A DNA stretch of 64,000 nt from Escherichia coli. Its GTDB lineage: Bacteria; Pseudomonadota; Gammaproteobacteria; Enterobacterales; Enterobacteriaceae. A program made the position numbers. Positions within the stretch are counted from its first letter, which is position 1, and each line of letters starts with the position of its first letter. The stretch lies in the NCBI RefSeq assembly GCF_046105845.1, contig NZ_CP151004.1; one strand, given 5' to 3'. Positions 1-3,000 of the stretch are shown here, one piece after another.

Positions 1-3000
1 TGGTGATGGAGCTTAGCGTAGTGAGAAGTTCAACCACCTGGTCTGACATCGGGACCACATGAATTTTGCGTCCCTTCATCACATTGGCGTCGATAGTGAT
101 AATCCTGTTTTCAAAATCGACGTTCTTCCATTGCATGGAACGAAGCTCTTTTGTTCTGAGGGCTGTGTAGCGTAAAACCTTGGTGGCAATGAGCGATACG
201 ATACTTCCTGAAAATGTTGCCAGTGCTTTGTTGAATGCCGGGATCTGGTCTGCAGGAAGAAACGGGAAGTTCTTCTTGCGGTATCCCTTCATGGCGTCAG
301 CAAGGTCAGGTGCCGGGTTATATTTAGCCCTACCAGTGACAATAGCGTAACGGAAAACCTCGCCGCATCTTCTGCGGGCTTTGTTGGCTCGCTCCATTGC
401 ACCGCGATCTTCAAATCTGCGGATTACTTCCAGCAGTTGCATCGGCTCAATATCCAGAATCTCAAGACCGCCGATGATGGGTAAAATGTCGTCATCAAAC
501 ATTTTGGCAAGTTCAGTTGCATAGCCTACTGACCAGACTTGCTTCTTGTGCTCGTACCATTCCTTGTAAATCGCACTAAAGGAATTGTTGTTAGACGAGT
601 CCTTTTTCGCCTTTACCGGATCGATGCCAACCGAGATGTCTTTCCTCGCAGTCCATGCTTTATCCCTTGCCTCCTGCAAAGTCATAAGCGGATATTTTCC
701 TACGGTCAGTATTTTTTCCTTACCGTCAATCTTGTAGCGAAGCTGCCATACCTTTTTCCCGGATACAGGGACATAAAGGTACAGGCCATTACCATCGAGA
801 AGGCGGTATGGTTTTTCTTTCGGCTTTGCTGCTTCAATCTGCTTAACGGTGAGCATGGGTAAAAATCCGGTGGGTAAAATTATTTTATCCACTTTTTACC
901 CGTCATGGAGTGCGGCTGTCAACGATCTGAAGCGAACCATGACGAACTGTGAGTTTCCGGGAGGCTTGATATTCTGGGGATTTTGCGGACTGGTACGGAT
1001 GGGAGCGAACTGATAAATGGTGTCCCCTGCAGGAATCGAACCTGCAATTAGCCCTTAGGAGGGGCTCGTTATATCCATTTAACTAAGAGGACAATGCGGC
1101 ATGAGTATACCCGCTAATGGACTGCGGGGTAAGTACGCTGCCGCTCGATTGCTTAAACCCTCGCCATTTATGCCGGGTTTTTATCATTTTTCTTAATGTT
1201 TTCCGCACGTTCTGCTTTTTGGCGTGCTTCTGCTTTGCGCTTGTTGCTCATGTCGTTACGGATCTGTGCATGACTCATTAACGCGAAGATAAAGGTGCCG
1301 CCGCAGATGTTCCCCGCTAAAGTAGGTAGTGCGAAGGGCCAGATGAAATCGCTCCAGTGCAGCGTACCGTTAAACACCAGATAGAGGATTTCAACAGAAC
1401 CGACAACGATGTGAGTGGTGTCACCCAGGGCAATAAGCCAGGTCATCAATATAATCACCACAATCTTTGCCGCACCTGCTGCAGGAAACATCCATACCAT
1501 AGTGGCGATCAGCCAGCCGGAAATGATCGCGTTGGCAAACATCTCGCTGGGGGTGTTCTTCATCACATCCATGCCGATTTTGACAAATGCATCGCGAGTT
1601 TCTTCATTGAAGATTGGCATATATTCAAATGCCCACGCCGCAATACCTGTCCCGAGAATATTACCCAGCAGCACGACGCCCCATAACCGCATAAGTAAGC
1701 CAACGTTGCTCATTGTCGGTTTTTGCATGACGGGTAGTACCGCAGTCACGGTGTTTTCGGTAAATAATTGCTGGCGGGCCATAATGACGATAATAAAACC
1801 AAAGGTATAACCGAGATTCTCCAGCAAGAAGCTGCCCGGCACACCTTCCAGTTCGACATGAAATATCCCTTTTGCCAGTAATGAAGCGCCCATCGACAGA
1901 CCCGCCGCAATGGCTGACCACAGTAGTGCCATTGCGTCGCGTTCCAGCTCTTTTTCACCATCCTGGCGGATATGCTCATGAATTGCCATCGCCCGGGAGG
2001 GGAGTCGGTCTTCATCTATTTCTATTTTTTTGCCGCGGTCTTTTTCTTCGCTTTCAACTTCAATTTCGTCGCTGTGTTGATCAATTTTGTCGTTGTCCAT
2101 GGTCTTTTCTCTTGAATTAGCACGTATAGCTAAAGCGTAGCGGCTTTTTTGCTCGCAACTGGCGGGAGTTACTCTGAAAATGTAGAAAAGGCCGCGTTTG
2201 CCTTTTTCTGTTTCTATAGAATCAAGTAGCCTACAGGGCGGCGATTACCAGGCTATGATCAAATCAGCAAATCAGGGCGTCTGGACATCAGTTGACGTGC
2301 TGTTACAATCGCCCACACCTAAACAGGCGGATACGGTATCGTTCCGTCATGGATGGCAAACTGCATAAGCCATAAAAAAACAGGGAGACATTTATGAAGC
2401 TTCGCCTGTCGGCGCTTGCTCTGGGAACTACGCTTCTGGTGGGGTGTGCGAGTTCCGGTACAGATCAGCAAGGGCGTTCTGACCCGTTAGAAGGGTTCAA
2501 CCGCACCATGTACAACTTCAACTTCAATGTATTAGACCCGTATATTGTTCGACCGGTCGCTGTCGCCTGGCGTGATTATGTTCCGCAACCGGCGCGTAAC
2601 GGTTTGAGCAACTTTACTGGCAACCTTGAAGAACCTGCGGTGATGGTTAACTACTTCTTGCAGGGCGACCCTTATCAGGGGATGGTCCACTTTACCCGCT
2701 TTTTCCTGAACACCATTTTGGGGATGGGCGGCTTTATTGATGTTGCAGGGATGGCGAACCCGAAACTGCAACGGACTGAACCTCACCGCTTCGGTAGTAC
2801 GCTTGGTCATTATGGTGTGGGTTATGGGCCATACGTTCAGTTACCGTTCTACGGTAGCTTCACGCTGCGTGATGACGGTGGTGATATGGCGGATGGTCTT
2901 TACCCGGTTCTTTCCTGGCTGACCTGGCCGATGTCTGTGGGTAAATGGACGCTTGAAGGGATAGAAACTCGTGCGCAGTTGTTGGATTCCGATGGTCTGC

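Follow-up and report, generated by a model that had tools for sequence, protein, structure and literature searches.

At the left edge of the window, meaning the whole 64-kb stretch of Escherichia coli DNA analysed here, an integrase reading frame runs off the sequence beside the tRNA gene argW. This raises the question of which kind of element ends there and at which base. The initial annotation regarded the region as a prophage boundary, with the 5' part of a tyrosine integrase gene lying next to argW and leaving the window. ARAGORN, the reading frame and the Pfam domains all agree with this. From the evidence below, window 1-1092 is very probably the attL (integrase-proximal) junction of an Sf6/HK620-like (Lederbergvirus) temperate prophage of the P22 family, inserted in the 3' end of argW. 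Coordinates of the features are given in Table 1.

Table 1. Features at the argW junction, in the adjoining chromosome and in the prophage (positions refer to the window unless a locus is named)
Feature	Position	Strand	Remarks
intS 5' part	1..856	-	codons 1-285 of 385: arm-binding N-domain, central domain, first half of catalytic domain
attL 220-bp substrate equivalent	833..1052	.	bounded by exact matches of the published attL primers (833-856, 1032-1052)
Two direct GGGTAAAA repeats	857-864, 872-879	+	orientation opposite to the copy at 894-901; repeat search
P' arm of attL	857..1016	.	phage-derived DNA from intS to core; intS promoter and recombination-protein binding region
PintS -10 TAAAAA	893..898	-	overlaps arm-type repeat GGGTAAAA at 901..894
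PintS -35 TTGACA	917..922	-	identical to K-12, where the promoter was mapped (PMC2951348)
att core (O) CTGCAGGGGACACCAT	1017..1032	-	exact match to KplE1 core; attP cores of HK620 and Sf6
argW, tRNA-Arg(CCU)	1018..1092	-	ARAGORN; identical to K-12 argW
yfdC	1168..2100	-	
mlaA	2394..3149	+	
yfdF orthologue	3328..4575	-	
fadL	4945..6291	-	
Tailspike	L007 14294-16633		PHROG matches to tailspike N-terminus; conserved P22 head-binding N-terminus
O-acetyltransferase (acyltransferase)	L007 16693-17859		adjoins tailspike

The junction of argW and the integrase gene

The only tRNA gene detected by ARAGORN in the 64-kb window was argW, with a cloverleaf and a CCU anticodon. Alignment gave the same sequence as K-12 argW, and by this comparison the gene is kept intact by the insertion. 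The integrase frame begins with an ATG at 856..854 on the minus strand and stays open through the first base of the window, with 285 of its 385 codons inside. The ATG and the 3' end of argW are separated by 161 bp (857..1017); the initial annotation was right about their proximity but gave the distance as 159 bp. The integrase fragment in the window matched the Pfam families Arm-DNA-bind_3 (1.9e-25), Phage_int_M (2.3e-27) and the first half of Phage_integrase (1.8e-17). The match to the last of these, PF00589, scored 64.1 bits against a gathering cutoff of 27.1 and covered profile positions 2-84 of 172. The HxxR, H and Tyr motifs of intS fall outside the window edge.

The full-length gene was found at L007 18188-19345 on contig SRR28309099_56. 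It encodes 385 amino acids, of which 378 (98%) are identical to IntS of the K-12 element CPS-53/KplE1. The comparison with this element, proposed in the initial annotation, was therefore apt for the integrase, which is IntS; the element itself is not the 10-kb CPS-53 remnant. Over its full length the protein matched PF00589 with 134 bits at profile positions 2-170 of 172, and the translation, read by eye and unaligned to a solved integrase, contains ALRTKELR, KGRK, HGFRHEF, LAHANG and RGIYNH. A search against NCBIfam returned only sub-threshold domain matches for IntS and no match for the recombination directionality factor (RDF). An upstream GTG start, which would give an ORF of 397 amino acids, was rejected, as it lies 5' of the mapped transcription start.

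The published 16-nt core of KplE1, CTGCAGGGGACACCAT, has one exact match in the window, on the minus strand, where 0.03 would be expected by chance. This match coincides with the attP cores annotated in the GenBank records of HK620 and Sf6. It consists of the last 15 nt of argW, including the encoded CCA, and one phage-derived base; the 15 nt at 1018..1032 (TGGTGTCCCCTGCAG) are the stretch common to all four att sites. The core had initially been placed around 1018-1040; its overlap with the argW 3' end stands, and its extent is corrected to 1017-1032. In a three-way alignment with the attP regions of HK620 and Sf6, homology between window and phage breaks exactly at 1032/1033. Positions 1..1032 are therefore phage-type DNA, and the chromosome begins at 1033. 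The attL junction is a BOP' hybrid, composed of bacterial argW down to 1033, the core, and the phage attP arm with intS leftward.

Window 1-1016 showed 95-97% nucleotide identity to the int-attP regions of Sf6, HK620, CUS-3, Kapi1, N7, HF4s, phiv205-1 and VT2phi_272, and at most 98.3% identity to intS in 1,862 complete E. coli genomes. In 1,705 of 5,426 complete E. coli genomes (about 31%), intS is contiguous with argW-yfdC-mlaA. All sequence criteria tested assign the junction to the KplE1/HK620/Sf6 argW recombination module. This argW/IntS module is published and common, and in this respect the junction is already known. In another strain with an identical YfdC, the IntS module at argW (L002 11245-20933, compared with L005) is joined to a prophage with a Mu-like contractile tail, which carries Baseplate_J, Mu Gp45/Gp48 and DNA_circ_N genes. 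The module is also present, at 95% identity, in the Stx2 phage VT2phi_272. The same IntS module thus occurs on unrelated bodies, and the integrase is not predictive of the phage body.

Two other sources of the junction have to be weighed against a complete phage. The junction might be that of a degraded, cryptic remnant of the kind seen in K-12 (CPS-53/KplE1), since CPS-53 has almost the same IntS, TorI, core and attL promoter and the window alone cannot tell a remnant from a full phage. Likewise, tRNA-adjacent P4-type integrases are often part of pathogenicity islands, and, as the Mu-like case illustrates, the type of element cannot be told from its integrase alone; the gene might then come from a non-phage genomic island or a phage satellite at argW. 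The DNA to the left of the window bears on both.

Extension to the far end of the prophage

An exact look-up of the YfdC protein returned six contigs, which served as the source of the extension and of relatives with an empty site. The Logan contig SRR28309099_56 (116.5 kb) was 100% identical to window 1..12100, and the other five were 98.5-99.2% identical. This contig was extended leftward by means of the rare proteins gp16, gp10, DUF6953 and cII, which gave overlapping pieces with 0 conflicts. The portal, Rz and O replication proteins, found on hundreds to thousands of contig blocks, were too common for this purpose. The assembled contig has two copies of TGGTGTCCCCTGCAG and no more, at window position 1018 and at window coordinate -36639, a distance of 37,657 bp. 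The far-end direct repeat of the argW 3' segment called for by the initial annotation was thus found as these 15 nt, next to an excisionase gene whose product is identical to TorI (66 of 66 residues). The attR (POB') core at L037 3161-3176 matches CTGCAGGGGACACCAT in 15 of 16 positions. The mismatch at the 16th base relative to attL is what would be expected, because this base is derived from the flank.

The four att sites were aligned using attB of an empty-site relative (L003), attR (L037), attL (window) and attP of HK620; an empty argW site with the same flanks is present in the relatives L001, L003, L004 and L006. The left flank of attB is that of attR, and its right flank, argW, is that of attL. 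The left arm of attP corresponds to the left side of attL and its right arm to the right side of attR. TGGTGTCCCCTGCAG is shared by attB, attR, attL and attP. With HK620's attP in the alignment and the attP of this phage reconstructed, the four sites fit a textbook reciprocal exchange of BOB' and POP'. The 16th core base tracks the flank (in window orientation, A where the flank is phage DNA and C where it is bacterial), which places the strand exchange within the 15 nt. The bacterial flank of K-12 carries the same 16th base by chance; hence the 16-nt duplication in the published description.

Gene content of the prophage

The element bounded by the two cores is apparently a complete Sf6/HK620-like prophage of the P22 family, 37.7 kb in length; the interval occupies 43316-80987 of the SRR28309099_56 record. 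The initial annotation had suggested extending the sequence upstream, and on the contig that is identical to the 12,100 window bases compared, this extension is a P22-like prophage of 37,657 bp. Gene groups were ordered from the far end (attR) toward the window, and virion families were typed with Pfam. Recombination and early left genes come first (RDF (TorI), Ea8.5, Ead/Ea22, Abc2, Erf, Kil, CIII, Ral and N), followed by immunity genes (an intact C2-type repressor of 216 amino acids, Cro and CII) and by replication and nin genes (an O-like replication protein, DnaB, NinB, NinF, RusA, NinH and a Q-type antiterminator). The lysis and accessory group holds holin, endolysin, Rz, a T5orf172 protein and a DUF2158/DUF6953 pair. 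Packaging and head genes encode TerS, TerL, a P22-type portal, scaffold and coat, and tail and ejection genes encode gp4, gp10, the needle, gp14, gp7, gp20 and gp16. The immI region and late end comprise mnt, arc, ant, a tailspike of 779 amino acids, an O-acetyltransferase and the 385-residue IntS. The components that characterise P22-like phages are present: portal, scaffold, coat, gp4, gp10, gp26 needle, gp7/gp20/gp16, head-binding tailspike, immI (mnt, arc, ant) and immC. Against N7, Sf6 and HK620, the right half of the prophage aligned over 48-63% of its length, with 96-97% identity.

A truncated repressor, proposed by a gene call of 119 amino acids with a Peptidase_S24 match, was rejected, since an intact ORF of 216 amino acids is present at L037 8969-9619. 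The repressor region of 751 bp is the same DNA as in L036, where the 216-residue repressor was called. The short call is a gene-calling artefact that recurs in related loci. The genes for DUF6953 (79 amino acids) and DUF2158 (70 amino acids) lie at L017 2538-3034 on the minus strand, directly upstream of the small terminase gene and on the strand opposite to it; the pair looks like a moron. The exact DUF6953 protein was found on only 20 contigs.

These genes decide between the sources of the junction. The isolated integrase remnant that the initial annotation named as the outcome contradicting a prophage boundary was not what the matching contig contained, since a full phage gene set is present there. 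A contig identical over 12.1 kb of the window carries 37.7 kb of contiguous phage genes of normal length, without gtrABS, and a cryptic remnant of the CPS-53 kind is accordingly highly improbable. The genes beside the integrase on SRR28309099_56 are P22-type virion and lambdoid early genes, and a non-phage island or satellite is less probable still, to a degree that is practically negligible. The 37.7-kb body was read from a different assembly that is identical over the 12.1 kb compared, and for the genome of the window itself the upstream identity is inferred. A remnant or a non-phage island would be tenable only if that genome departed from SRR28309099_56 upstream. This is unlikely, because the contig is perfect over 12.1 kb while every complete genome is at least about 1% off, and also because the rare variants of gp16 and gp10 were found on no more than two contigs of the whole collection, as would fit a single strain; the second of these contigs, longer than 1 Mb, is probably the source genome.

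The intS promoter and putative IntS sites within attL

Within the 261-bp attL region at 840-1100, 253 positions are identical to K-12 attL, and all 8 differences lie at 951-975. From the -35 box to the intS ATG, as well as in the arm sites and the core, the sequence is base for base that of K-12. The promoter and start sites of KplE1 intS were mapped experimentally; the -10 box is given as TAaAAa and overlaps P'1, and all P' sites of KplE1 contain TAAA (PMC2951348). A generic promoter scan proposed ATGACG/AATAAT at 906..879, which was set aside in favour of the experimentally mapped TTGACA/TAAAAA. The GGGTAAAA repeats, with the conserved TAAA, are putative arm-type (P') sites of IntS, and the HK620 record annotates attP repeats at positions equivalent to those at 857-879. 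In KplE1, IntS and TorI both repress the intS promoter via sites overlapping attL, and the efficiency of excision depends on a narrow range of IntS concentration (PMC2951348). In vitro, IntS, TorI and IHF recombine the published attL substrate of 220 bp, and the published attR primer matches L037 exactly. Negative autoregulation of intS and TorI-dependent excision were demonstrated for KplE1 and HK620 substrates only (PMC2951348, PMC3509656).

The stretch 951-975 is also where HK620 and Sf6 diverge from the window, which indicates that it varies within the family. The substitutions might affect the affinity of TorI. The variant block is one possible defect to be considered for a prophage that looks complete yet is defective or domesticated, i.e. 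not inducible or unable to form particles, and that is kept for its O-antigen-modifying or lysogenic-conversion genes. Many enterobacterial prophages carry inactivating point mutations, which are not visible at the resolution of ORF length. Against this, all expected genes are open at their usual length (repressor, cro, N, Q-type antiterminator, lysis cassette, terminase, virion genes, int and RDF), and both att cores are intact. Such a defective prophage is unlikely, with some weight left to it, and an apparently complete phage remains the preferred reading.

Tailspike and O-acetyltransferase

The genes for the tailspike and the O-acetyltransferase lie about 0.6-4.2 kb to the left of window position 1. 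When the immI-tailspike-O-acetyltransferase segment was used as query, at most 44% of it was covered in any of the 5,426 complete E. coli genomes. The matches in these genomes end in the 5' part of the tailspike gene; the receptor-binding part and the acetyltransferase are unmatched. For the receptor-binding part, identity to any phage record reaches about 52% at most, with Enterobacter phages as the best matches. The O-acetyltransferase shares 40% identity with OacB of Sf101 and, over 107 amino acids, about 30% with Oac of Sf6. This off-window pair is the sole part of the element that is not already described. Tentatively, it may combine a new O-antigen receptor specificity with a new modification that converts the serotype, the host being an E. 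coli lineage with few complete genomes; we consider this possible rather than probable.

Chromosomal surroundings

The genes to the right of argW are those of the E. coli argW neighbourhood. Of the 5,426 complete E. coli genomes, 5,425 matched the chromosomal part of the query. The best identity of the window to complete RefSeq E. coli genomes was only 98.3-99.1%, and the E. coli lineage of the host is therefore poorly represented among complete genomes. For window 27000-35000 (yfcJ to accD), the best value among the 5,426 complete RefSeq genomes was 99.1%. Window 3150-4700 is an island of 33-35% GC that holds an orthologue of YfdF with 415 amino acids. This protein is about 80% identical to K-12 YfdF (352 amino acids), contains an internal tandem duplication of roughly 63 amino acids and matched no Pfam family. 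At the other end of the prophage, the attR flank (L037 1-3160) carries a fragment of a DUF4942 gene and the sucrose-utilisation genes cscB-cscK-cscA, as in the empty-site relatives. K-12 has dsdC where the csc genes sit here, and the argW-dsdA interval is thus itself variable.

The junction marks the boundary of a mobile element, with phage DNA to the left of 1032 and chromosome to the right. argW is a recurrent insertion site, occupied here by a temperate phage that is probably O-antigen-modifying; the IntS module is shared by serotype-converting, K1-specific and Stx2 phages. The practical gain for annotation lies in exact att coordinates and in the link to a well-studied regulatory model; no new question is opened by the junction.

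Proposed mechanism of recombination

The KplE1/HK620 module, to which the present one is 98-100% identical, serves as the basis of the mechanism inferred here. IntS would act as a heterobivalent tyrosine recombinase that binds the arm-type GGGTAAAA sites and the core. Together with IHF it would recombine the phage attP with attB inside the 3' end of argW, and argW would be restored intact because the phage carries the same 15 nt. In the lysogen, a sigma-70 promoter of its own, located inside attL (-35 at 922..917, -10 at 898..893), would drive intS. The sites of IntS and TorI would overlap this promoter, leading to negative autoregulation. With a promoter the same as that of K-12, expression of intS in the lysogen is predicted to be low and autoregulated. 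Excision would require both IntS and TorI, the latter being encoded at the opposite end of the prophage and probably transcribed separately from int.

Comparison with known systems

One of the closest described systems is KplE1/CPS-53 (Panis et al. 2010, PMC2951348; 2012, PMC3509656). Both elements target argW, the 16-nt attL core is identical, IntS and TorI are 98% and 100% identical, respectively, and int and the RDF gene lie at opposite ends of the prophage. The two elements also agree fully in the -35 and -10 boxes of the intS promoter, in the arm-type repeats and in the distance to the ATG, and the attL and attR primers match exactly. However, KplE1 is a non-inducible remnant of 10.2 kb with gtrABS, whereas the present element is 37.7 kb long, apparently complete and carries an O-acetyltransferase instead. 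The described content of CPS-53/KplE1 is intS, gtrABS, a few fragments of tail and early genes, and torI. The attR flank is dsdC in KplE1 and csc-type here, and the 16th base of the attR core is T in KplE1 and G here.

With Sf6 and HK620, the element shares an int-attP region of 95-96% identity with the annotated attP core at window 1017-1032, structural genes that are 96-97% identical, and the late order of tailspike, O-antigen-modification gene, int, attP and RDF. It differs from them in the receptor-binding part of the tailspike, which is unrelated (about 52% to Enterobacter phage fibres), in a small terminase of the Terminase_2 type and in a mosaic early region. The integrase and the P' arm also resemble those of CUS-3, Kapi1, phiv205-1, N7, HF4s and VT2phi_272 (95-97% nucleotide identity), and Kapi1 is described as integrated in argW. 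The bodies and cargo of the other argW phages are different, for example a K1 endosialidase in CUS-3 and Stx2 in VT2phi_272.

As in the Int/Xis system of lambda, a heterobivalent tyrosine recombinase would act on arm sites and a core site, with IHF assisting integration and an RDF directing excision. In contrast to lambda, int and the RDF gene would not be co-transcribed, and the int promoter, which lies inside attL, would be autoregulated (PMC2951348). Also unlike lambda, the integrase is of the P4 type (Arm-DNA-bind_3), and its target is a tRNA gene.
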